64,000 nucleotides of DNA, taken from assembly GCA_043797665.1 (NCBI GenBank), contig JAZDPL010000065.1, forward strand, positions 1-64,000, given 5' to 3'. The position numbers were made by a program, and so were the translations under genes. Under the pieces are notes generated by a model, which ran no database searches, was not told the origin of the DNA, and saw only the letters and a list, made by a program, of their open reading frames with translations. The stretch's first letter is position 1. Every line of letters begins with the position of its first letter. Origin of the DNA: Candidatus Omnitrophota bacterium (GTDB lineage Bacteria > Ratteibacteria > UBA8468 > MWAK01). This document shows, piece after piece, positions 4,646-55,580 of the stretch.

Positions 4646-5842
4646 TTAGGAAAGGATGAAGGAGACGATGCGTTTAGCTGGTTCCGGATGAGCCAGGCGT
4701 CGGGTTGCTTCAGCCATAGTACTTATCTTCTGCGGGTTGCCTGCCAGGGTTTTAATCTCTTTCGCTAAGTCTTCACCGGACAAGCCGGATTCTGTTTTTA
4801 AAATGCCGGCACCATTCTTAACTAAATAGTTTGCGTTCAGGGTCTGGTGGTCTTCTGCGGCAAAGGGATAAGGAGTCAGGATTGAGGGTAAGCCGAATGC
4901 GGTCAATTCCGCGATGGTAGTCGCACCAGACCGGCAAATAGCCAAGTCGGAAGCGGTATAGAGTAGTTCCATCTCCGAAAAGAAAGACCGGGTGTAATTC
5001 TGGAAATTTTTCTTTCGGTAGGTTTCTGAAACCAATTGATAGTCAATCGGTCCGGTGAGGTGAATAAACTGAACTTCATCCGGGGAAAGATAGTCAAGGC
5101 TTGCCAGAATTTTGAGGTTAATCTGGTGTGCACCCTGGCTCCCGCCCAGAACCAGAACCGTAAATTTCTCTTTTACCAGCCCCAGATTCAGTCTTAACTT
5201 TTCTTCCCCCTCTCCTTCATCCTCCCCCAATCTGACATTGGGGTCCCCGCCCTCAAGGGGGGAGGTAAGGTGGGGGTGTAAGTTACGAAATGGTCTTAAA
5301 GGATTGCCTGTCTCCAGAACTTTTTTTGTCCGCAGATAGTTCCGGCTCTCCGGAAAAGAAGTGAAGACTGCCCGGCACCGTGAGCTGAATATTCGGGTGG
5401 ATTTACCCGGCAAAAGGTTCTGCTCGCAGAAGTAGAGGGGAATACGCAGAATAACCGCAGACAGGGCAGGGGCAGCCGAGGCGTAACCACCCATTCCGAT
5501 AACCGCAACAGGCCGATGGCGTAAAAGGTAGCCGAAGGCAAAAAGAAAAGCCCGGATAGCCCGAAAGGGGAAGGAGACGAGGTCTCTTTTTCCGGAGGGG
5601 AGACGAACGACCGGAACCTCCTGAAAAGGGATGCCGGCCTTATAAAATTCGTTTTTCAGTTCCGGGATTGTTCTGCCGATGACCAGAGGTTTTATTCTCT
5701 GTGACCGGAACTCCAGAGCCAACGACAGGGCAGGGAAGAGGTGCCCGCCGGTGCCGCCGGCTGCAATTACCACCTTTCCCCTCTCCCGATTCAACGGGAA
5801 GGGTACCCGCCTTTGTAAAAGGGGGATTGAGGGGGATTTCAT
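4646..5842 (-). CDS. murG: Lipid II GlcNAc transferase MurG, with two in-frame repeat inserts
   Basis: GGTGGH, EQN, GNP, GGSQGA, RSGATT and HQTLNA motifs. Confidence 0.96.
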   Translation of the reverse strand: MKSPSIPLLQRRVPFPLNRERGKVVIAAGGTGGHLFPALSLALEFRSQRIKPLVIGRTIPELKNEFYKAGIPFQEVPVVRLPSGKRDLVSFPFRAIRAFLFAFGYLLRHRPVAVIGMGGYASAAPALSAVILRIPLYFCEQNLLPGKSTRIFSSRCRAVFTSFPESRNYLRTKKVLETGNPLRPFRNLHPHLTSPLEGGDPNVRLGEDEGEGEEKLRLNLGLVKEKFTVLVLGGSQGAHQINLKILASLDYLSPDEVQFIHLTGPIDYQLVSETYRKKNFQNYTRSFFSEMELLYTASDLAICRSGATTIAELTAFGLPSILTPYPFAAEDHQTLNANYLVKNGAGILKTESGLSGEDLAKEIKTLAGNPQKISTMAEATRRLAHPEPAKRIVSFILS

Positions 5843-6966
5843 ATCCGGAAATCCTCCGGCGGCAGGTTACGGGCTAAGTTGACCAGAAGCCCTCCGCTTA
5901 AGAGGGTAAAGACCAGGGAACTACCGCCGTAACTGATAAAAGGCAGGGTGATGCCCTTGGTTGGGAAGAGGCTTACCACAACGCCGATGTGGATAATCGC
6001 CTGTAAACCGATGAGACTGGTGATGCTTAACGCCAGAAATTTGTGGAACTGGTCGGTACTTTCTTTGCTTATCCGCAAGCCATACAGAATAATGAGGAGG
6101 AATAACCCAAGAAAAAATGTCGAGCCGAACAGACCCATTTCTTCCGCAATATTGGCAAAGATAAAGTCAGTGTGCGCCTCCGGTAAGAAAAAAAGTTTTT
6201 GTTTGCCCTGTCCTAAGCCAACTCCAAAGAGTCCTCCGCTGCCAACCCCGATTAAGGACTGGCTGATATGGTAAGAAGAGCCCAGAGGGTCCCGCCAGGG
6301 ATTAAGAAAAGAGAGGAAACGGGTCCGCCGGAAAGGAGAGAGAGCAATCATCAGGCTGCCAGCAAGGAGACAGGCTACTACCAGAAGGCCCAGGTACTTA
6401 AAGGGTACGTTAGCCACGTAGTAGAGGATAATGACCACGCCGGCTAAAAGGACCACGGTCCCTAAGTCTGGTTCGGCCAGAATCAAGCCCATTCCCAGTC
6501 CAATCAGGATACCGGGCGGAAGGAAGACCAGAAGGGGATTGCGAATCTTCTCTTTTTTCCTGGCCAGAAAGTCAGAAAGGTAGATTAGAATCGCAACCTT
6601 GGCGAATTCCGAGGGCTGGAAAGAGATTGGTCCAAAAGAGAACCAGCGCGTGGCACCATTGACCTCCTTTCCTACACGGAGCACCAAAAACAGAAGAACA
6701 AGTGAGAATAGAAGGGGAAGCCGCGCAAATTTTTCTATTTTTTTTAAAGGGAATATTTGCCCGATCAAAAAGGCGATTGTCCCCAGCAAAACCCAGACCA
6801 AATCTTTCTTTAAAAAGTAATACTGGTCGGAGAACCGCTGACCCGCAAAGGCAAAGGTGGTGTTGTAGACTATCACCACTCCCAGGCCGGTTAAGCCGAG
6901 AAACAGTAAAGAGAGTTTACGGTAAAGAGGCCACGGCTTTCTTAAAGATATTTCCCCGTTCAGCAT
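5839..6966 (-). CDS. ftsW: Peptidoglycan polymerase FtsW (start uncertain)
   Basis: GATRW, FQPSEFAK, EPDLGT, LPEAHTDF and LPFISYGGSS motifs; lies between murD and murG. Confidence 0.93.
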   Translation of the reverse strand: MLNGEISLRKPWPLYRKLSLLFLGLTGLGVVIVYNTTFAFAGQRFSDQYYFLKKDLVWVLLGTIAFLIGQIFPLKKIEKFARLPLLFSLVLLFLVLRVGKEVNGATRWFSFGPISFQPSEFAKVAILIYLSDFLARKKEKIRNPLLVFLPPGILIGLGMGLILAEPDLGTVVLLAGVVIILYYVANVPFKYLGLLVVACLLAGSLMIALSPFRRTRFLSFLNPWRDPLGSSYHISQSLIGVGSGGLFGVGLGQGKQKLFFLPEAHTDFIFANIAEEMGLFGSTFFLGLFLLIILYGLRISKESTDQFHKFLALSITSLIGLQAIIHIGVVVSLFPTKGITLPFISYGGSSLVFTLLSGGLLVNLARNLPPEDFRI

Positions 6967-8386
6967 AACTTTCAAACATATCGAAACTGGAACAGGCGGG
7001 TGACAGGAGAACCGTATCTCCGGAAACCGCCAGGCTATGTGCCAAAAGAACACCTTCCGGCAGACTGCTTACTTCTTTAATGTCACTGCTGCCGGCCAAC
7101 TCCTTCTTAATCCGGTCAGTCGCTTCGCCTAAAAGTATGAGTGCTTTCACCCTTTTTTTGAGCGCTGGTTTTAAAGGCAGGTATGAGCCGCCTTTGTCCT
7201 TTCCGCCCAGAATGAGGATGAGCCGTTTGGTCTTACTTTCCGGGAATGATTGCAGCGCCCGCAGGGTGGAGTCAACGTTAGTGGCTTTGGAATCGTCAAC
7301 ATATCTTATTCCTGATTTTTCCGCAACCAGTTCCATCCGGTGGTTGAGCGGCTGAAATTTTTTAATCGCCTCAACCATTGCCGGAGGTCTGGCACCAAAA
7401 CAATGGGCTGCCGCACAAACAGACAGGATATTCTCCTGGTTATGGATACCCCAGAGGCGACTTTTCGGGATGGTAAGGAGTTCTTCACCCGAGGGCAAAA
7501 ATATTGTTTTGTCATCAGTGCAGAAAAACTGCTTGAACCCGCAGGAATTTATACCCCCTGTTAATCCCAAACTGTAGGGGCTTGATTCATCAAGCCCGCG
7601 GGTCGGATAAATCCGACCCCTACATTTGTAGGATTTGTTGGGCTTGACGGGTATAGGATTTGTACGAGTGTAAAAGAAGGTTCTGGCTTTTATCCCGGTA
7701 GCCAGACTCCGACTCACCGGGTCATCGTAATTGATGACCGCAAAGTCTTCCGGGGTCTGGTTTTCAAAGATTCGTTTTTTAGCAGACAGGTAGGAGTCGA
7801 AGTCCGGATACCGGTCCAGATGGTCTGCGGTAACATTGAGGAGTACAGCGACCTTTGCTCTGAATTCAACAATCCATTCCAGCTGGAAACTGCTTACTTC
7901 CAGGACTACCGCTTCGGTTTGCGCAAGGTCTTCTACCACTGAGATGAAGGGCGTACCGATATTGCCCGCCAGGATAACTTTTTTACCGGCTGTTTTCAGG
8001 ATGTCGTAAAGCAGCGTAACCGCAGTACTCTTTCCGTTGGTACCGGTAATCGCTAAGATTGGTGCCGGGCAGAACCGGTAGGCTAATTCAATCTCGCTCC
8101 AGACCGGGATTCTGTTCTTGAGGGCAAACCGGACGGGAAAAGATTCCGGTGTGACTCCCGGGCTGGGAACTACCAGTTCTATGTCACCTAAAAACGTTTC
8201 TGAATGTTGACCTAATTCTACTTCTATCCCGGTACTCTCCAGAGATTTCTTCTTTTCACGCAGAGCAGGATTGTCGCCGGCTTCAGTCAGTCGGACCAGG
8301 GCGCCCTTTTTACCCAAAAAAAGCGCGGTTGCCTCCCCGCTTTTGCCCAGACCCACTACCAGTACCTTTTTACCGGACAGTTCCAC
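6917..8386 (-). CDS. murD: UDP-MurNAc-L-Ala:D-Glu ligase, with an in-frame repeat insert
   Basis: GLGKSG, TGTNGKST, EVSSFQL, DHLDRY, DSKATN and SPACSSFD motifs. Confidence 0.96.
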   Translation of the reverse strand: MELSGKKVLVVGLGKSGEATALFLGKKGALVRLTEAGDNPALREKKKSLESTGIEVELGQHSETFLGDIELVVPSPGVTPESFPVRFALKNRIPVWSEIELAYRFCPAPILAITGTNGKSTAVTLLYDILKTAGKKVILAGNIGTPFISVVEDLAQTEAVVLEVSSFQLEWIVEFRAKVAVLLNVTADHLDRYPDFDSYLSAKKRIFENQTPEDFAVINYDDPVSRSLATGIKARTFFYTRTNPIPVKPNKSYKCRGRIYPTRGLDESSPYSLGLTGGINSCGFKQFFCTDDKTIFLPSGEELLTIPKSRLWGIHNQENILSVCAAAHCFGARPPAMVEAIKKFQPLNHRMELVAEKSGIRYVDDSKATNVDSTLRALQSFPESKTKRLILILGGKDKGGSYLPLKPALKKRVKALILLGEATDRIKKELAGSSDIKEVSSLPEGVLLAHSLAVSGDTVLLSPACSSFDMFESYAERGNIFKKAVASLP

Positions 8387-10498: not shown

Positions 10499-10520
10499 AC
10501 GTTACCTCCCCTGTGTTATT

Positions 10521-10724
10521 TGTCATTCTGAACCCTTTACTTCCTGTCATTCTGAGCCCTTCGTTTGTCATTCTGAGCCCTTCGTTTGTCATTCTGAGCG
10601 AAGCGAAGAATCTCAGGGTAAACTCCGTGAAGAATCCGACGTACTATGTCGTCCTGAACGAATGTGAAGGATCTCCCTTAGATCCTTCGTCCCTGAGTAA
10701 AGCACTCAGGAACTCAGGATGACA
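10521..10724. repeat. large family A cluster with tandem 21-bp units
   Basis: Four tgtcattctga starts (10521, 10545, 10566, 10587), then an inverted doublet ending ...ctcaggatgaca. Confidence 0.9.
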
Positions 10725-11010
10725 CGAATACGTCATATAGATCTATCCATTTAGGATTTGAAGAAACGATAAGATGCTCTTTTTTCTTTCTGAGCCATCC
10801 TTTAATCTGCTTTTCTCGTGATATCGCTGATTTCACTTCGTTTGTTTCTTCATAATAGACCAGTTTTGTTAAATTGTACTTTTTGGTAAAGCCTTCCACC
10901 AGTTTCTTTTTATGTTCCCAAATTCGACGCACCAAATTATTGGTTACCCCGGTATATAGAACCTTGTTAGTTTTGTTGGTTAAAATATAGACATAGTAGT
11001 TGTAAGGCAT
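10714..11010 (-). CDS. Stand-alone GIY-YIG nuclease (98 aa)
   Basis: YYVYIL...LYTGVTNNLVRRIWEHK...FTKKY...AISREKQIKGW; start moved to MPYNYY because the longer ORF runs through the tRNA. Confidence 0.92.
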   Translation of the reverse strand: MPYNYYVYILTNKTNKVLYTGVTNNLVRRIWEHKKKLVEGFTKKYNLTKLVYYEETNEVKSAISREKQIKGWLRKKKEHLIVSSNPKWIDLYDVFVSS

Positions 11011-11031
11011 GGTGCGTTTTTCAAGAAAAAC

Positions 11032-11058
11032 AGATTCTTCGTTGCACTCAGAATGACA
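11032..11058 (-). repeat. family A repeat between tRNA-Val and the GIY-YIG gene
   Basis: reverse complement reads tgtcattctgagtgcaacgaagaatct. Confidence 0.9.
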
Positions 11059-11068
11059 GACATCCAGG

Positions 11069-48622: not shown

Positions 48623-50032
48623 TCAGGAGTGGCGGTAGACGTTCCAGCCTAAGTAGTTATCCAGTGCTTCCGTAAGAATGTCTGCGGTCTGGGATTGGCT
48701 GAGCGCAACGTGGTGTTCAAACCCGTTTTTGCACAGAACCTGGAGGAGTTCCTGCAGTCTTTCTATTTTTGCGACACCAACTCCGCCAAAGGTCTTCAAC
48801 GGGTCGTCGGTAATCTTTCCCTCGCCGATACAGGCGACAATCTGACCGTTAACGTCATCGGTGCTGATTCGGGCAAAGGTCATTGGTCCGGCGGATATCC
48901 TTCCGGTGTAGGTGCCGTAACTGTTTTCCGGTCCGGCACCCATTCGGGCAGCGATGACGTTGTAACTCATCCCGGTATTTTTGAGCATACTTTTGGGTGC
49001 GTTACTGCAGTGGAAGAGGACCAGTTTATCCGGGTCGTCTCCGTAATTGTTGTTCCAGTCAAAGAGTCCGGAGGGTGCTTCGCTTGCTAATTGTAGGGCG
49101 TACATCGCTACCGCACCCACCACGTCCACTTCACAGGCACAGGGTACCCCGGAGTTACTCATCATACTCATCAGAACGCAGGGAAAGATGGCAAGTGCAT
49201 CCTGCAAGGCTGACCAGCACTGAAGGGTACCGGCATGGATATCGTTCTCTTTAATCCACCGGTCGATGACCAAACCCATCTTAGCCATCTTTAAGAGAGC
49301 GGATGTTGATATTCCTTTGGTGGAGCAATATCCTTCAATTGCCTTCAACTTATTGCCAACCGCCTTATCCGAATCCTTCAGTTTCGCTACGCCGTTCATT
49401 ACCTCGGAGAGGTCAAGGGTTTCTACGGAAATGCCGCTCTTCTGAAGTAATTTTTCGCTGAAACGCACCGTCTTGAAAGGAGTGGTCCGGGCGCCAATCG
49501 CTCCGATTCGTGCCTGCCGAAGTCCTTTTACCACCCGGCAGACACCCATAAACCTTCGTAAGTCGGCAATGAAATCTTTACTGGCAGGATAGACGGTATG
49601 TAGTTCGGTTAACGAGAAGGTGATACCGTACTGGCGCAGGTTGTTGCAGACCGAGAATTTCCCGCAGAAACTGTCCCGGCGGTAGTCCGCTTCCATTCTC
49701 TCCAACCGGTCAGGATAAGCCTGAACCAGGACCGGAACGTTCAGGCCGGACATCTTAATGGTTTCTGCGATTGCCCTTTCGTCTCCGAAGTTGGGCAGGC
49801 TGATTAGAATACCGTCTATTTTCTCCCGGTTCTGACGGAAGAGGTTGGCACACTTTTTAGCGTCACCTAAGTTTTCAATGGCTCCCCATTTTGTGTCTCT
49901 GTTGCCGGCAATCAGGATATCTATTCCTTCCTTTCGTAACGTCTCAACTACTTCCTGGCGTCCTTTTTCCGCAAGCCCGCCTGGAAAACAGCCCCGGTGT
50001 CCGATGATTACACCCAGCGTTCCTTTCTTCAT
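48623..50032 (-). CDS. L-fucose/L-arabinose isomerase family protein
   Basis: NFGDE, RRDSFCGK, ACEVD, FHCSN and GFEHH motifs; start moved to MKKGTL because the upstream codons lie in a repeat. Confidence 0.9.
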   Translation of the reverse strand: MKKGTLGVIIGHRGCFPGGLAEKGRQEVVETLRKEGIDILIAGNRDTKWGAIENLGDAKKCANLFRQNREKIDGILISLPNFGDERAIAETIKMSGLNVPVLVQAYPDRLERMEADYRRDSFCGKFSVCNNLRQYGITFSLTELHTVYPASKDFIADLRRFMGVCRVVKGLRQARIGAIGARTTPFKTVRFSEKLLQKSGISVETLDLSEVMNGVAKLKDSDKAVGNKLKAIEGYCSTKGISTSALLKMAKMGLVIDRWIKENDIHAGTLQCWSALQDALAIFPCVLMSMMSNSGVPCACEVDVVGAVAMYALQLASEAPSGLFDWNNNYGDDPDKLVLFHCSNAPKSMLKNTGMSYNVIAARMGAGPENSYGTYTGRISAGPMTFARISTDDVNGQIVACIGEGKITDDPLKTFGGVGVAKIERLQELLQVLCKNGFEHHVALSQSQTADILTEALDNYLGWNVYRHS

Positions 50033-50043
50033 AATCCTCTCCT

Positions 50044-50075
50044 TGTCATTCCCGCATGCTTTAAGCGGGAATCCA
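50044..50075 (+). repeat. family C repeat
   Basis: tgtcattcccgcatgctttaagcgggaatcca. Confidence 0.85.
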
Positions 50076-50100
50076 TTGGATTCCTTATTGTTATATTGTA

Positions 50101-51621
50101 TCACACTTTCAGTTTTTGGAGGGACTGCCGGGCAGAGGCAAGGGAATGGTAAATTTCTTTGTATATTTCAAATCGCTCCTCATAGGCTTGGGTATATTTA
50201 GGCCGTGGATAAAAGGTTCTGGTTGGTTTTGCCCATTTTCCTGCGGTGGTCCTGAGGTCAAAGAGACCGGTACCGGACCCGGCAAGAATCGCTGCGCCCA
50301 TACAGGTTGCTTCGGTTATAGAGAGAGTGGTCAGCGGAATTCCTAAGATATCCGCTTTTATCTGCAGCCAGGTGGCACTCTTTGCTCCGCCGCCGATGGT
50401 CCGCAACTCTTTTATCTTTAGCCCCACACCGTTCAGTATGGAGAGGTTCCACTTCATTTCGTAGGTTATCCCTTCCAGAAAGGCACGCAGGATTTCCGAG
50501 CGGGTGGTGGAAAGTTTCAGTCCGAACAGGACACCGGTTCCAGACTGGTCAAAGAGGGGAGTACCGGTAGGGCAAAAGTGGGGGAGAAGAATCAGCCGCG
50601 ATGGGTTCCGGTCAGCACTTTTGATGATCTTTTCGTAAGGGTCCTGGCCTTTTTGCCGTGCTTCTTTGGTTTCTTCTAAGGCAAGGTTGTCCCTTACCCA
50701 GCGCAGGATATTGCCGCCGGTCAGGCTGAAGGCTACCGTAGTGTAAGCCTCCGGTATGACGTGAGGATAGGTTGCCAGGTTACAGCGCATCAGTTCAGGG
50801 TTTAAGATAAGACGGTTAAAGGCAGGGCAGATACATTCTGCAGTGCCGGTGGAATAACTGGCACAGTCGGTTGTTACCGCTCCGGAACCTAATGCGCCGC
50901 AGGGCTGGTCGTGTCCCCCTAAAACCACAGAGACCTTTTTGTCCAGGCCAATCTTCCGGGCGATATCTTTTTTTAAGGTGCCCACAACCGTACCGCTGGG
51001 TACTACATCCGGCAGACGTCTGCCGGGCAGCCCGATTCTATCCAGAATTTCCGGAGACCATTTTTTGGTTCTTACATTAAACAGCATGGAACGGCTTGCC
51101 ATAGTATATTCCGCTTTGGTTTCACCGGTGAGGACAAACGCAAGTAAGTCCAGAAAGAAGAAGAACTTCCAGGTTTTCTGCCATACGTCCGGCTGATGTT
51201 CCTTAAGCCACAAAAGTTTGAAAAGAGAGTACATATGGTAGGGAGTATGGCCGGTAATCCGGTAAATTTTCTCTGCACCGAAACTCCTGCTCCAGGGAGC
51301 AACCAGGTGTTGGGCCCGGAAATCAGCGGTGGTCATGGCGTTTCCCAGAAACCTTCCGTCTTTTGATACCGGCGTGAACGCCTCTCCCTGAGAGGCGATA
51401 CCGACGGCGACAACCGGGTCCTTCTTTTTAACCTCCGCACTTACTTTCTTGATAACCTGCAGGGCAGAGTAGATTACCTTATTTGAATCAAGTTCACAAA
51501 ACCCGGATTTGGGAAGTAGAGTGGGATATTCCTGATAGGCAATGGCAAGGAGTTTGCCTGATTCGCCAAAGACCGCGGCCTTTACGCCGCCCTGCCCGAT
51601 ATCCACTCCCATCAGACTCAT
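50101..51621 (-). CDS. FGGY family carbohydrate kinase
   Basis: GVDIG, GGHDQ, GTAE and GGGAKS..W.QIKAD motifs. Confidence 0.93.
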   Translation of the reverse strand: MSLMGVDIGQGGVKAAVFGESGKLLAIAYQEYPTLLPKSGFCELDSNKVIYSALQVIKKVSAEVKKKDPVVAVGIASQGEAFTPVSKDGRFLGNAMTTADFRAQHLVAPWSRSFGAEKIYRITGHTPYHMYSLFKLLWLKEHQPDVWQKTWKFFFFLDLLAFVLTGETKAEYTMASRSMLFNVRTKKWSPEILDRIGLPGRRLPDVVPSGTVVGTLKKDIARKIGLDKKVSVVLGGHDQPCGALGSGAVTTDCASYSTGTAECICPAFNRLILNPELMRCNLATYPHVIPEAYTTVAFSLTGGNILRWVRDNLALEETKEARQKGQDPYEKIIKSADRNPSRLILLPHFCPTGTPLFDQSGTGVLFGLKLSTTRSEILRAFLEGITYEMKWNLSILNGVGLKIKELRTIGGGAKSATWLQIKADILGIPLTTLSITEATCMGAAILAGSGTGLFDLRTTAGKWAKPTRTFYPRPKYTQAYEERFEIYKEIYHSLASARQSLQKLKV

Positions 51622-51623
51622 AT

Positions 51624-54600
51624 TTATTGGGGTTGGTAAAAAAAGGTGGCAATCTGGAAGGGTTTTACCATGATAGTAAAACGTCTGCCGGTGAAAGGTA
51701 TTTTGTTTTTAACCTCTTCTATAAGGTTGGTTTCCCTGAGTTCTTTGGGTTCTGACGGCAGGGTAACGGTAACTTTACCGGCTTTGCCGTTTGATTCGTA
51801 CAGGCGCAGGATAAACCCTTGACCGTCTTCCGAACGTTTTAAGGCGGAAATAACCACGTCTAAACCTTCGGTTTTAATAAAAGAGAAGGATGTAGGGGCT
51901 TGATTCATCAAGCCCGTTTCGGGCGCCATAAATGGCGCCCCTACACTCAGAGGAAGGAGAAGAACCGGGATGTTGAGTTGATAGCCTTGTTTAACCACTT
52001 CAGAGTTAGACCAATTCCCCCGGTGCAGGAAAAGGGAATAGGTGAATCGGTGTTTTCCCCAATCTGCTTCCGGGTCAGGATAGGTAGGTGCACGTAAAAG
52101 GGTAAGGCGTATGATATTCCTTTTAATGTCATACCCGTACTTGCAATCGTTGAGAAGGCTCACGCCGTACTTATCATCGGAGAGGTCTGCCCAGCGTAAG
52201 GCAGAGACTTCTTTCTTTGCTTCTTCCCAGGAATTATTATTGGTGGTAGGCCGGCCAATCGCGCCAAAAGGTATTTCGTAAAAGGCTTGATCGGATTTCA
52301 CCGAGACCGGAAAAGCGGACTTGAGCATCTTGCGCCTTTCCTGCCAGTTTACCGTGGTTTTAAAGTCAATACGCCAGGAGTCTTCATAAAGAACGATATC
52401 CTGGGAAAGGGTGCTTTTATTGTCTTTAAATACTTGCCGCAAGACGGCTCTAAACGGACAGGATTCTATTATTTTACGCTGGACTAATTTTCCAAAGGGT
52501 CTGACCGTGGATTCGTAATCCGGGTCAATATTCCAGGCTTCTTCCGCTAAGGGTCCGTCTTTAAAGATTAAGAAATCGTTGGCGCAGGATTTCGGAGGTA
52601 TAACCTCTTTTTTATTTACCTTATCGTAGATACTTATGATTCTGCCCTGTTGGTTAAGGTTTAAAGAAAGGTTTTTGTTTTCCAGAAAATCCTTTTTTAT
52701 CTTTAATTCGGATTTTTCAGGTTTCTCCCCTTTCAAATAATAAACCCGGTAGCCACAGGAAGGCAGTGCTGTATTTATCAGAATGCCTGGTTTTACTTCC
52801 ACTATTTCTTTCCGCTCCCAGTTGAGAGGGTTGAAGAGTAAGACCGCTTCGCCTTTTTCCGGAGATACGGAAATTCTGCCGGCAATCTTGTTTAAGTTAT
52901 TCTTAATCTCATCGTTAAGATGCATAATGATTTTCTGGTACTGCGGTTCAATGTCCTGGTAGACTTCTTTGATGGAAGAGCCGGGTAAGATGTCGTGGAA
53001 CTGGAAGGTCAGGATTTTTTCCCAGATATCAGTCATTTCTTCGGGTCGGATGAATCCGCCCCCTACACCTTGTTTGTAGGGCGGGTTTCCCTTGTCATAG
53101 GATTGACAAGGGCTCGATTTATCGAGCCCGCCAAGAATTGTGTTAAGGCTCTGGAGGAGTTCCAGGGTGTAAAGAAGGTTTTCCGCGGTCCGGTTGTTTT
53201 GTTTAATTTGCGCCTGGCTGGTGTAACAGCCCTGATGGGTTTCCAAATAAAGTTCACCTTTCCAGACCGGAAGGTCTTTGGATTCTTTTACTACCTTTTT
53301 AAAATAGTCTTCGACCCGGCTGGCGCTACTTTTAGGAAGATAAGGAAGATTTCCCACTCGTTTCGCGTATTCTAACATCTCCAAAGATACCCCGCCACCG
53401 CCGTCACCGTAACCAAAAGGAAAGAGGCAGACGGGAAATCTTATTTTCTGTTGGAATTCTTTCTCCGCTTTTTTAAACTGATAGGGATTCGGGAAGCCGT
53501 TGTAGCCCCAGAAGAGCTTTGGTGTGTGGGCTAAGACTCTGCTTCCGTCAATTCCCTGCCACCAGAAGAGACTGTGCGGAAAACGGTTGGTCGTCTGCCA
53601 GTAAATTTTATTGGTATAGAAATAGTCTATGCCGGATTCCTTGAATATCTGGGGCAGGGAACCGCTAAAACCGAAGGTATCCGGCAGCCAGGCGGTACGG
53701 ACATCTTTACCGAATTCCTCTTTAAAAAACTTTTTGCCGTAAAGAATCTGGCGTACTAAAGACTCTCCGGAGATAAGGTTGCAGTCCGGTTCTACCCAGA
53801 GACCGCCAACCGGTTCCCACTGACCTTTTGCCACCCTTTCTTTTATTCCCTGGTAGACATCAGGATAATACTTTTTGGTAAATTGGTATAACTGGGGCTG
53901 GCTGGCGCAGAAGATAAATTCAGGGTAAATTTCCATCAAACGTAACGCGGTAGAAAATGTCCGTCCGCACTTCCGTATTGTTTCCGCAATCGTCCAGAGC
54001 CAGGCGGTATCAATGTGGCTGTGACCCACCAATGCCAGGGAAAACCCCTGTTTACTACCCCTGCCTACTGCATGCAGGGGCAAGCATACAGGGGCAGGAT
54101 TATGCGATAACCCTTTTTTGGCGAAAAATTCTCTCGTTAAGATGCCGCAGGCTTCCGTAATAGAATTCATCTCTTCTCCCCAATCTGACATTGGGGTCCC
54201 CGCGTCGAACTTTCGGAGCGCCTTAAGGATAACCGGTTCCAGAACCTTTTTCTCTTTTTCTTCCGCGGTTTGCCAGATTTCAAAAATCACCCTGAGGTGA
54301 TAATAGAATTTTAAAATCTGGTGATTAAGCGCAGACAGTTCCACCGAGGAGAAGAGGTGGGGCTGGTCGGGAGCCGAGCAGATTCGGTTTGAAAAAGACC
54401 ACTCCACTTCAAAGGTGAGGATTTTTTTGTTTAATAACGGCCTGCCCCTGCATGTAATAGGCAGGGGGACCAGGCTGTGGTTTCTGTCTATGCCCCAGTA
54501 GGGTTTACCTTCAAGAAAGAGCAAGCCCTCCGCATTATTAAACCCAAATTTTAGATATAACTGAGAGTCTTTCGGACCTGCAGACAAAGGCAATTCCCCT

Positions 54601-54776
54601 TTGAAAGATAGCCTCTTCTCAAAAGTGGAGATAACCGGAAGACGCACCCTTTGCCACTTATCCGCGGTGTTTTTCCTAATTACTCCTTCATCCAGAGTAA
54701 ACAGAATACGACCGGATTTCTCCTCCAGTACTCTGAGAGTTCCTGCAACCTTACTGCTCAATCTCTGCGTCTCCAT
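51624..54776 (-). CDS. GH38 alpha-mannosidase with five in-frame repeat inserts
   Basis: GHSHIDTAWLW, WLPDTFG, GYGDGGGG, GELYLETH and QFHDILPGSSI motifs; start METQRL. Confidence 0.93.
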   Translation of the reverse strand: METQRLSSKVAGTLRVLEEKSGRILFTLDEGVIRKNTADKWQRVRLPVISTFEKRLSFKGELPLSAGPKDSQLYLKFGFNNAEGLLFLEGKPYWGIDRNHSLVPLPITCRGRPLLNKKILTFEVEWSFSNRICSAPDQPHLFSSVELSALNHQILKFYYHLRVIFEIWQTAEEKEKKVLEPVILKALRKFDAGTPMSDWGEEMNSITEACGILTREFFAKKGLSHNPAPVCLPLHAVGRGSKQGFSLALVGHSHIDTAWLWTIAETIRKCGRTFSTALRLMEIYPEFIFCASQPQLYQFTKKYYPDVYQGIKERVAKGQWEPVGGLWVEPDCNLISGESLVRQILYGKKFFKEEFGKDVRTAWLPDTFGFSGSLPQIFKESGIDYFYTNKIYWQTTNRFPHSLFWWQGIDGSRVLAHTPKLFWGYNGFPNPYQFKKAEKEFQQKIRFPVCLFPFGYGDGGGGVSLEMLEYAKRVGNLPYLPKSSASRVEDYFKKVVKESKDLPVWKGELYLETHQGCYTSQAQIKQNNRTAENLLYTLELLQSLNTILGGLDKSSPCQSYDKGNPPYKQGVGGGFIRPEEMTDIWEKILTFQFHDILPGSSIKEVYQDIEPQYQKIIMHLNDEIKNNLNKIAGRISVSPEKGEAVLLFNPLNWERKEIVEVKPGILINTALPSCGYRVYYLKGEKPEKSELKIKKDFLENKNLSLNLNQQGRIISIYDKVNKKEVIPPKSCANDFLIFKDGPLAEEAWNIDPDYESTVRPFGKLVQRKIIESCPFRAVLRQVFKDNKSTLSQDIVLYEDSWRIDFKTTVNWQERRKMLKSAFPVSVKSDQAFYEIPFGAIGRPTTNNNSWEEAKKEVSALRWADLSDDKYGVSLLNDCKYGYDIKRNIIRLTLLRAPTYPDPEADWGKHRFTYSLFLHRGNWSNSEVVKQGYQLNIPVLLLPLSVGAPFMAPETGLMNQAPTSFSFIKTEGLDVVISALKRSEDGQGFILRLYESNGKAGKVTVTLPSEPKELRETNLIEEVKNKIPFTGRRFTIMVKPFQIATFFYQPQ

Positions 54777-54787
54777 GGAGGTTCTTT

Positions 54788-55549
54788 TTAGGGGATGAGG
54801 AGGCTGAGGCGTTCCCCGGAAAGGAGCATACCGCCAAAGATAGGGCCCATTCTCGGACCGCCGAAAACCGCATTTACGGTCATACCCGCGATGAAAAGTC
54901 CCGGGAATACCTCGCCGGTGTTGGCGATAATCATCTCTTCGCCTTTTTCTGCCCACATCGGACCTTCGCCCGCAACCTTACCGGTGGGTGTACGCAGGGT
55001 TACCTTTCCTTTATCCACCAGGAGCCGGCAGAGAACCGCATCGTGGCCGGTGGCATCAACCACCGCTTTTGCCCGGATGGTTATCGGGTCAACGTGGAGA
55101 CCGGCGGTCTTGACCGCAGACCAGTTGAGAACCAGGCCGTTGACCCTGCCTTCCTGGAGCGAAAGGTCTTCCACCGCAATCAGGTTGAAGATTTTGGCGC
55201 CAGCCTGGATGGCTTTACTGGTAAGCAAAGAGATTGCTTCCAACGAATCGGCGACGTAATAGCCTGCCTGGTATTTTTGATAACGGATGCCAAACTCGTC
55301 CAGAATTTTCTTCGCCTCTTCCTGGATTACAATTTTGTTGAACATCATTCCGCCGCCCGGCATTCCGCCGCCAACCCTTAACTGGCGTTCAAAAATGGCT
55401 ACCTTCCTGCCTTTCTTAGCCAGAAAGTAGGCAGCGGTTAAGCCGGCCGGACCGGCACCGGCAATCGCGACGTCATTTTCCAGATAGTTAAGAAAGTCCT
55501 GAAAATAAGTTTCCACAATCGCCCGGGAAATCACAACATCATCCAGCAT
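54788..55549 (-). CDS. thi4: Thi4-type thiazole synthase, His (sulfide-dependent) variant
   Basis: GAGPAG, GGGM, LHVDP, DATGH and [14 protein letters not shown] motifs. Confidence 0.94.
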
Positions 55550-55560
55550 ATTTTCCTCCA

Positions 55561-55580
55561 TTAGGGGTTGCTAAACCCCT
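55561..55580. repeat. collapsed end of the 18443-18747 MITE
   Basis: ttaggggttgctaaac is identical to 18441-18456 and is followed by ccct, closing a hairpin. Confidence 0.55.

Follow-up and report, generated by a model that had tools for sequence, protein, structure and literature searches.

Rickettsia palindromic elements (RPE) measure ~100-150 nt, and the small dispersed repeats (SDR) of Nostoc, reported by Elhai in 2008, are said to be mobile hairpins of 21-27 nt, nested within their own kind as well as within other repeats. Palindromic repeats lying in frame within genes are documented from the Rickettsia work and from Di Nocera 2013 (PMC3733652), the consulted sections of which describe intragenic repetitive extragenic palindromic (REP) sequences tagged with GTAG, give at least 70 rows for Opitutus terrae, glycoside hydrolases included, and contain, among the matches listed, eight O. 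terrae open reading frames (ORFs) with two inserts, some from two families. GTAG-dependent single-strand cleavage and strand transfer by REP-associated tyrosine transposases (RAYTs) have been studied biochemically (PMC8266576, in the part consulted), and a further system, as set out in the consulted part of Chenal 2025 (PMC11893778), pairs Ssn nucleases of the GIY-YIG type with NTS/SRM (CGTC-type) hairpins. Here, we analyzed a 64,000-nt stretch of the Candidatus Omnitrophota assembly GCA_043797665.1 (contig JAZDPL010000065.1, positions 1 to 64,000; the window), in which one gene for a predicted alpha-mannosidase of glycoside hydrolase family 38 (GH38) contains five repeat tracts from four families.

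The five-site gene is real, goes beyond chance, and is well explained by tolerated in-frame repeat insertions. We put at about three in four the probability that its tracts are copies of four genome-wide hairpin families, likely tolerated selfish DNA that would be translated into predicted extra surface loops, a reading drawn from sequence comparison and a structural model. Sites 4 and 5 are members of the intragenic GTAG REP kind of Di Nocera 2013 (PMC3733652). Compared to the consulted sections of that paper, the GH38 gene has five sites against at most two per Opitutus ORF among the matches listed, three of its four families are not GTAG-tagged, repeats nest within coding insertions, and turnover is shown by filled and empty pairs of sister genomes.

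Five repeat tracts in one alpha-mannosidase gene

BLAST of positions 51601-55000 against the organism's own 2.69-Mb assembly returned eight repeated segments, three with a single match and five with 11-208 overlapping matches, and the latter coincide with five repeat positions that a first-pass annotation, made from the sequence alone, had placed in this gene (Table 1). All five tracts lie inside one open frame, with no stop or frameshift in 1050 codons, and they divide among GTAG REP dimers (sites 4 and 5) and three other hairpins, termed D (sites 1 and 3), F (site 2), and E (site 4). Their anatomy is as that annotation described it: a D within a D, a GTAG pair with a nested E hairpin (in the second unit, ~53082-53111, 30 nt, within a tract of 89-90 nt), a GTAG doublet encoding the peptide VGAPFMAPETGLMNQAPT at site 5, a D encoding PLPITCRGR, and, at site 2, a 26-mer identical to murG positions 5225-5250. 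Site 3 stands just upstream of the strand carrying HSHID, site 4 in a helix-helix loop of the middle domain, and site 5 replaces part of a linker.

By its domains and fold, the protein is a GH38 alpha-mannosidase, with enzyme activity predicted. Four Pfam domains were found (PF01074, PF09261, PF07748, and PF17677), and the fold matches the Ams1 and Bl_Man38 structures (TM-score 0.81-0.83; E 5e-146), sharing the domain set of Ams1 and Bl_Man38A-C (PDB 7vqo, 6lz1, 7ufr) but differing from them in five extra loops and a 10-residue N-terminal deletion. The conserved metal and catalytic residues, which we take from the GH38 family to be the Zn ligands, nucleophile, and acid/base, occupy columns that are 98-100% conserved among 119 homologues, in keeping with the earlier statement that frame and catalytic motifs are preserved. 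A longer reading from GTG at 54956 was rejected for its overlap with thi4, and orthologues begin at 54776.

Table 1. Repeat sites and associated features of the GH38 gene, in window positions
Feature	Position	Strand	Remarks
GH38 alpha-mannosidase ORF	51624..54776	-	Intact, 1050 aa; start ATG 54776, stop 51624; Ams1/Bl_Man38-like; H252, H254, D256, D366, D458, H594, D595 present
Site 1: CCTG-tailed 27-nt D hairpin	54441..54467	+ (antisense to gene)	Residues 104-112 PLPITCRGR; net +5 to +8 aa
Site 2: CGGGGA-tailed 24-nt F hairpin, G on both sides	54179..54202	-	Residues ~192-199; net +8 aa versus 5/5 close orthologues
Site 3: D within D, the outer 27-nt unit holding a second one (54058-54084, 27 nt) in its loop	54045..54098	-	54 nt, 18 aa
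Site 4: tail-to-tail GTAG REP pair, 53042-53066 + 53076-53130	53042..53130	.	Net +24 to +26 aa
Site 5: head-to-head GTAG REP dimer (REPIN), 53 nt	51892..51944	.	Residues 945-962; net +7 to +11 aa
Loss of 10 residues following residue 36	~54660..54680 (~54668, residue 36/37)	-	Not repeat-related

We compared lengths with the close orthologues P0002-P0006 (50-60% BLAST identity; P0006 ends before site 5) in an alignment of 119 homologues. Wherever the close orthologues extend across a site, the window protein exceeds them in length, by 5-26 residues per site and 55-72 extra residues in sum. No homologue is as long as it at sites 2, 3, and 5 (0 of 118-119); at site 1 there are three such homologues among 118, and at site 4 two among 119. 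The expectation that each segment would align as an indel of a multiple of three holds cleanly for sites 2 and 3: the 24-nt repeat of site 2 equals the net gain, and so does the 54-nt tract of site 3 when P0002 and P0006 are the reference (+18 residues, within a range of +13 to +19). At sites 1 (27 nt), 4 (89-90 nt), and 5 (53 nt), by contrast, net gain falls short of repeat length because native loop codons were also lost, so that these are insertions combined with loss. In two genomes with no match to the GTAG, D, and F patterns, the orthologues (full length in G004, the N-terminal part in G002) are without the segments they cover; homologous sequence of equal length in repeat-free genomes, named in the annotation as evidence against insertion, does not occur there. 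Searches for closer orthologues gave at best 44% identity in a metagenome scan and, among shorter proteins, 59% over 26% of the query.

A relative represented by contigs in run X1 (88-92% identity; net lengths read from alignment tables) carries the F insert at site 2 and is 21 nt shorter at site 1 and 15 nt shorter at site 4. Its site 3 has equal net length in rearranged form (14 nt out, 14 nt in), and across 51675-52052, which spans site 5, one contig is of equal length and another 21 nt shorter. Given that these length differences are all multiples of three, the sites differ in age and keep changing in frame.

Genome-wide repeat families and their candidate movers

With genes called by a custom script (2320 genes), a strict census found 595 hairpin sites, 81 of them deep in genes, and an extension with nine more patterns raised these to 822 and 123; both censuses rely on patterns and so contain a number of chance or overlapping calls. 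Sites are 37-42 times less dense within genes than between them, and the share deep in genes in the strict census is 11/20 for F, 19/67 for D, 60/483 for GTAG, and 8/199 for GTCATT-ATT. Structure-based patterns count 492 GTAG-GGG hairpins against ~3 in a genome-size-scaled order-4 Markov control, 35 GTAG-CGC and 199 GTCATT-ATT hairpins (0-3 per family in the control), and hairpins of the D (52), E (118), and F (20) types (~0, 3, and 0). Intragenic targets in 30 proteins scanned include polA (2 sites), leuS, valS, murD, murG, tilS, fmt, mnmG, and hypF. In the window, the F of murG (5225-5250) is nested in another hairpin, murD (6917-8386) holds a GTAG dimer, and tilS has a D (1540-1566) in common with the sister genome G001 as well as a further 66-nt hairpin insert that is absent from G001.

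The GTAG units have the features of REPs, namely GTAG 5' of a short hairpin, high copy number, a mainly intergenic location (in the strict census, 363 of 483 intergenic, 60 at gene edges, and 60 deep in genes), and inverted dimers (sites 4 and 5); within genes, the unit stands only in the four phases without a stop. A predicted RAYT (Y1/HUH) gene of 143 aa (C47:11213-11644) is flanked on both sides by GTAG units of the site-4 and site-5 types, and its product scores 26.8 bits against PF01797 Y1_Tnp (cut-off 23) with H68-L-H70 and Y124 present. Among 41 genomes, the GTAG pattern occurs in 12, and a RAYT of at least 52% identity in 7 of these 12 and 0 of the 29 others, kin among them not being independent. 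The REPtron locus differs between the sisters: the 85%-identical RAYT orthologue of G001 (L141, G001:C186) occupies a site that corresponds to C8:13303 in the genome of the window (G000), where other hairpins sit. A second Y1_Tnp protein (L016, 450 aa, fused) was dismissed as mover, as it does not have GTAG units on both sides; in its gene (L016:1375-2727), which carries three repeat sites, Y1_Tnp is joined to a hydrophobic stretch and to a C-terminal domain.

D is a CCTG-tailed hairpin, almost always preceded by a purine, that accounts for a net 27 nt in filled/empty pairs, and F, usually with a G on either side, accounts for a net 24 nt in such pairs and 48 nt in tandem; for both, junction ambiguity is at most 1 nt, as for fixed-length units. 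The GTAG unit that holds E at site 4 is 30 nt longer through E than the host consensus. D nests in GTAG and GTCATT hosts and resembles the GTCATT family in the sequence of its loop and inner stem, and tandem D and tandem F occur in G001. At D junctions such as C47:37502, C52:9912, and C30:17432, G precedes D where the commonest free host repeat has T and the net length is 27, which suggests a one-base change at the junction in several hosts. Judged from the best 80 of 110 loci, D occurs across Planctomycetota, Latescibacterota, Nitrospirota, Gammaproteobacteria, and others, with a GTCATT-type hairpin as neighbor in 45 of the 80 and a GTAG-type hairpin in 12; outside this genome it is mainly non-coding, with an open frame in 4 of 74 full-length loci among the matches listed. 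F was found, by one pattern in 41 genomes, only in G000 and G001.

The possibility that D, E, and F are Ssn/SRM (CGTC-type) repeats was dismissed, the published SRM pattern matching 0 of 67 D, 0 of 110 E, and 0 of 20 F, against 112 of 199 in the control GTCATT-ATT family. Among ORFs of 60-260 aa in this 86%-complete genome, inspected by eye from their N-terminal sequence, no recognizable nuclease or transposase has D, E, or F on both flanks; GIY-YIG genes are among those flanked on both sides, by GTCATT families. One such gene (PF01541, 98 aa) lies in the window at 10714-11010 on the minus strand, between GTCATTCTGA-type hairpins at 10520-10720 and 11030-11060, with a short tandem run of hairpins at ~10520-10590. 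A second copy at C85:18886-19176 (61% identity) has inverted GTCATT-ATT REPs around it, and a broken copy lies at C36:28897. These loci match the Ssn/SRM architecture in the consulted part of Chenal 2025 (PMC11893778). Purine/pyrimidine-rich hairpins of the CCCTCACC..GAGGG and CCCCTCAATCCCCCTT..AAGGGGG types, for example at C61:88297 and C92:51967-54288 of G000, are mainly intragenic in G000 (15/23 and 13/24) and frequent among G001-side insertions. A DUF559 gene in G008 has such a hairpin, of the PLP type, at its 3' end, which we regard as a lead; the DUF559 match in G000 (C20) has no flanking PLP-type hairpin in the stretch examined.

Selection, clustering, and rival explanations

The comparison of G000 with G001 covered ~0.7 Mb of the ~1.3-Mb G001, comprising 85 loci, 422 gene pairs, and 430 kb at a median identity of 90.7%. 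All 82 intragenic indels of at least 12 nt are multiples of three, as are 54 of 56 smaller ones, which bears out the earlier suggestion of selection for frame; 47 of the 82, in 36 genes, are repeat-derived, and 30 of these 47 are on the G001 side only, the G000 frames being open by construction. In an AlphaFold model of the GH38 protein (predicted template modeling score, pTM, 0.77), examined as the annotation had proposed, all five sites are in loops. All five also fall in windows where the standard deviation of family length is at least 0.8, which make up 35% of 937 windows (chance ~0.35^5 = 0.005), and long invariant stretches of the protein are untouched by inserts.

The gene is under ordinary purifying selection. 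Against the X1 relative, 45 synonymous and 25 nonsynonymous codons were counted in 77 listed differences of more than 400, a nonsynonymous share of 0.36 where neutrality predicts 0.72-0.78; the genome-wide share from G000/G001 is 0.361, which places GH38 at the 52nd percentile of 421 genes. Nor is its protein branch long, at 0.335 compared to 0.33-0.38 root-to-tip for the sister clade. These values bear on the view that the gene is decaying, with relaxed selection letting insertions and the N-terminal deletion build up. That view gains from the 10 residues missing near residue 36 (present in 5/5 close orthologues; the X1-relative contig spanning the deletion has no gap there, so that it is apparently common to both), from G001 retaining only a GH38 stub of 19 codons, from the presence of several GH38 paralogues in the genome, and from G507D in the X1 relative at a column invariant in alignment A1. 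We nevertheless consider decay improbable, since the frame is open throughout, the catalytic columns are all conserved, the substitution share and branch length are ordinary, and the X1 length variants, at four sites, all preserve the frame. In G001, the sequence after thi4 (L251:1-420, G001:C239) consists of the stub, a stop, and then an unrelated membrane-protein frame, and nothing of a GH38 orthologue was found beyond the stub in this 70%-complete assembly.

Under a uniform Poisson model, genes with at least five sites are expected to number 0.0002 in the strict and 0.001 in the extended census, compared to 1 and 2 observed. The claim that unrelated families add in-frame peptide here at unusual density therefore stands as regards the four families and the excess over Poisson, but not as regards uniqueness: in the extended census, GH38 no longer ranks first alone but shares that place with a 656-aa O-antigen-ligase/TPR gene on contig C1, which is denser, at 2.5 sites per kb versus 1.6. 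GH38 is the tail of a genome-wide distribution, with the most mixed set of families. This distribution is overdispersed (17 genes with at least two sites versus 5.2 expected), as would also follow if loci such as GH38 were targeting hot spots, for example through single-stranded exposure or local hopping, and the excess reflected insertion rate instead of tolerance. The nesting of D and E in existing hairpins fits such targeting, as does the genome's densest cluster (L098:3116-12692, G000:C1), where polA, the O-antigen-ligase/TPR gene, and a glycosyltransferase fusion have 2, 5, and 4 sites within 10 kb. However, the genes flanking GH38 (thi4, FGGY kinase, fucose isomerase, and bamA-like) have no deep repeat sites, the four families in GH38 probably have different movers, and no host hairpin was seen around the inserts at sites 1 and 2, making a hot spot decidedly improbable. 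The thi4, GH38, FGGY kinase, and fucose-isomerase-like genes are near-contiguous on the minus strand (window 48623-55561), and gene neighbors in the relatives G004 and G007 differ from this set.

It is very improbable, in our judgment, that the tracts are adaptive or regulatory, with mRNA hairpins tuning translation or stability or the loops altering oligomerization or substrate access, even if sites 3, 4, and 5 fold far more stably than shuffled sequences (z -3.5 to -5.6) and sites 2-5 persist in some form in the ~90%-identical relative. Hardly any credence can be given to assembly artefacts or to removal from RNA in the manner of tiny introns: the GH38 protein is on record from one contig only, but independent contigs of the 88-92%-identical relative hold variants of sites 2-5, G000 and G001 have certain filled sites of further genes in common, and tracts that are spliced out would need no strict rule of three, so that the indels count against RNA removal. 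A search of sequencing runs listed one DNA run (share 0.08) and no RNA run, a result that is neutral as to expression.

We therefore return to tolerated insertion, for which we propose three steps. (i) The RAYT, as an HUH/Y1 nuclease, would cut single-stranded DNA guided by GTAG and spread GTAG units and dimers (sites 4 and 5), an insertion that may often cost a few native codons. (ii) D (27 nt) and F (24 nt) would enter as fixed-length units, with D and E preferring to land in other hairpins (sites 3 and 4). (iii) Most coding insertions would be purged, and in-frame, stop-free ones in length-tolerant loops would drift to fixation, presumably as near-neutral and translated peptide, then erode in multiples of three or gain nested copies. 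Of the genome-wide insertion, the genome's own REP transposase is likely one driver, and a putative mover of D, E, and F the other. Insert-bearing genes are slightly more tolerant of substitution (0.40 versus 0.34, p=2e-4, 73 versus 348 genes), and GH38 likely owes its five tracts to its length, its many tolerant loops, and its dispensability, the last because the sister genome retains only the stub and four paralogous loci exist.

Several observations weigh against this proposal. GH38 itself is not more relaxed than the average gene, so the case for its dispensability comes down to the stub in the 70%-complete G001 assembly, and the substitution count behind that comparison covers a minor part of the differences. 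Of the four GH38 paralogous loci, three have no repeat sites and one has two, which, together with the empty neighboring genes, means that length and fold alone do not explain five. The low predicted local distance difference test (pLDDT) values at sites 2-5 are to be expected from alignment gaps and are no proof of disorder or surface exposure. The C47 RAYT reaches 63 bits (E 2.7e-17) against NCBIfam REP_Tyr_transpos NF047646, below its cut-off of 80; four of the 12 GTAG-bearing genomes (77-91% complete) have no close RAYT by the C47 query, and a fifth has a single GTAG match and no RAYT match.

A bolder reading, which we rate as unlikely, is that D and F form a cross-phylum class of minimal mobile hairpins, precisely 9 and 8 codons long, with a mover that would be neither RAYT nor Ssn, and that their multiple-of-three length opens coding DNA to them. 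In this genus, they and other hairpin families may then have acted as continuous loop-insertion mutagenesis, changing ~1 in 12 compared genes (36/422) within 9% nucleotide divergence, with GH38 as its most diverse product. Since D elsewhere is mainly non-coding, its length in multiples of three may be chance.

Relation to described repeat systems

As far as the consulted parts of the sources go, the GTAG repeats are like GTAG REP/REPIN-RAYT systems in the GTAG tag 5' of a hairpin and in their head-to-head and tail-to-tail dimers, and like GTAG REPtrons in a cognate RAYT flanked by its own units, a mainly intergenic location, and in-frame copies in known enzymes (PMC3733652, PMC8266576). RPE, the precedent named in the first-pass annotation, are alike, as cited in PMC3733652, in being palindromic repeats in frame within functional genes that add peptide, and to this extent the comparison is apt; the closest case is, however, that of the intragenic GTAG/CGTC REPs of the same paper. 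The tracts here are 24-30-nt singles or 53-90-nt composites with GTAG, CCTG, or CGGG tails in a host that is not Rickettsia, in contrast to RPE, which end in CGTC, a distinction made without direct sequence comparison. Judged by the properties ascribed to Nostoc SDR, D (27 nt) and F (24 nt) resemble them in size, dispersal, precise unit mobility, and nesting, and D differs in occurring in several non-cyanobacterial phyla. The genome is like the Ssn system, in the consulted part of PMC11893778, in having GIY-YIG genes flanked by GTCATT hairpins (in the window and on contig C85), but D, E, and F miss the SRM pattern and GTCATT repeats are absent from GH38.

In the literature consulted, we found no description of the D, E, and F hairpins or of five repeats in one gene; the remaining rows of Di Nocera 2013, those for Rickettsia included, could hold ORFs with more than two inserts. 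What is new here is the degree and the mix of families in one gene, and the mover of the D, E, and F hairpins as a separate question. For that question, the 24-nt F and 27-nt D offer exact substrates in the search for what moves hairpins this small. With the dated filled/empty pairs of this genus, one could measure the rate at which repeats become peptide, including in the essential polA, leuS, valS, murD, murG, tilS, and fmt. A single enzyme can absorb much selfish DNA, here 55-72 residues from four families, with no sign of lost constraint.

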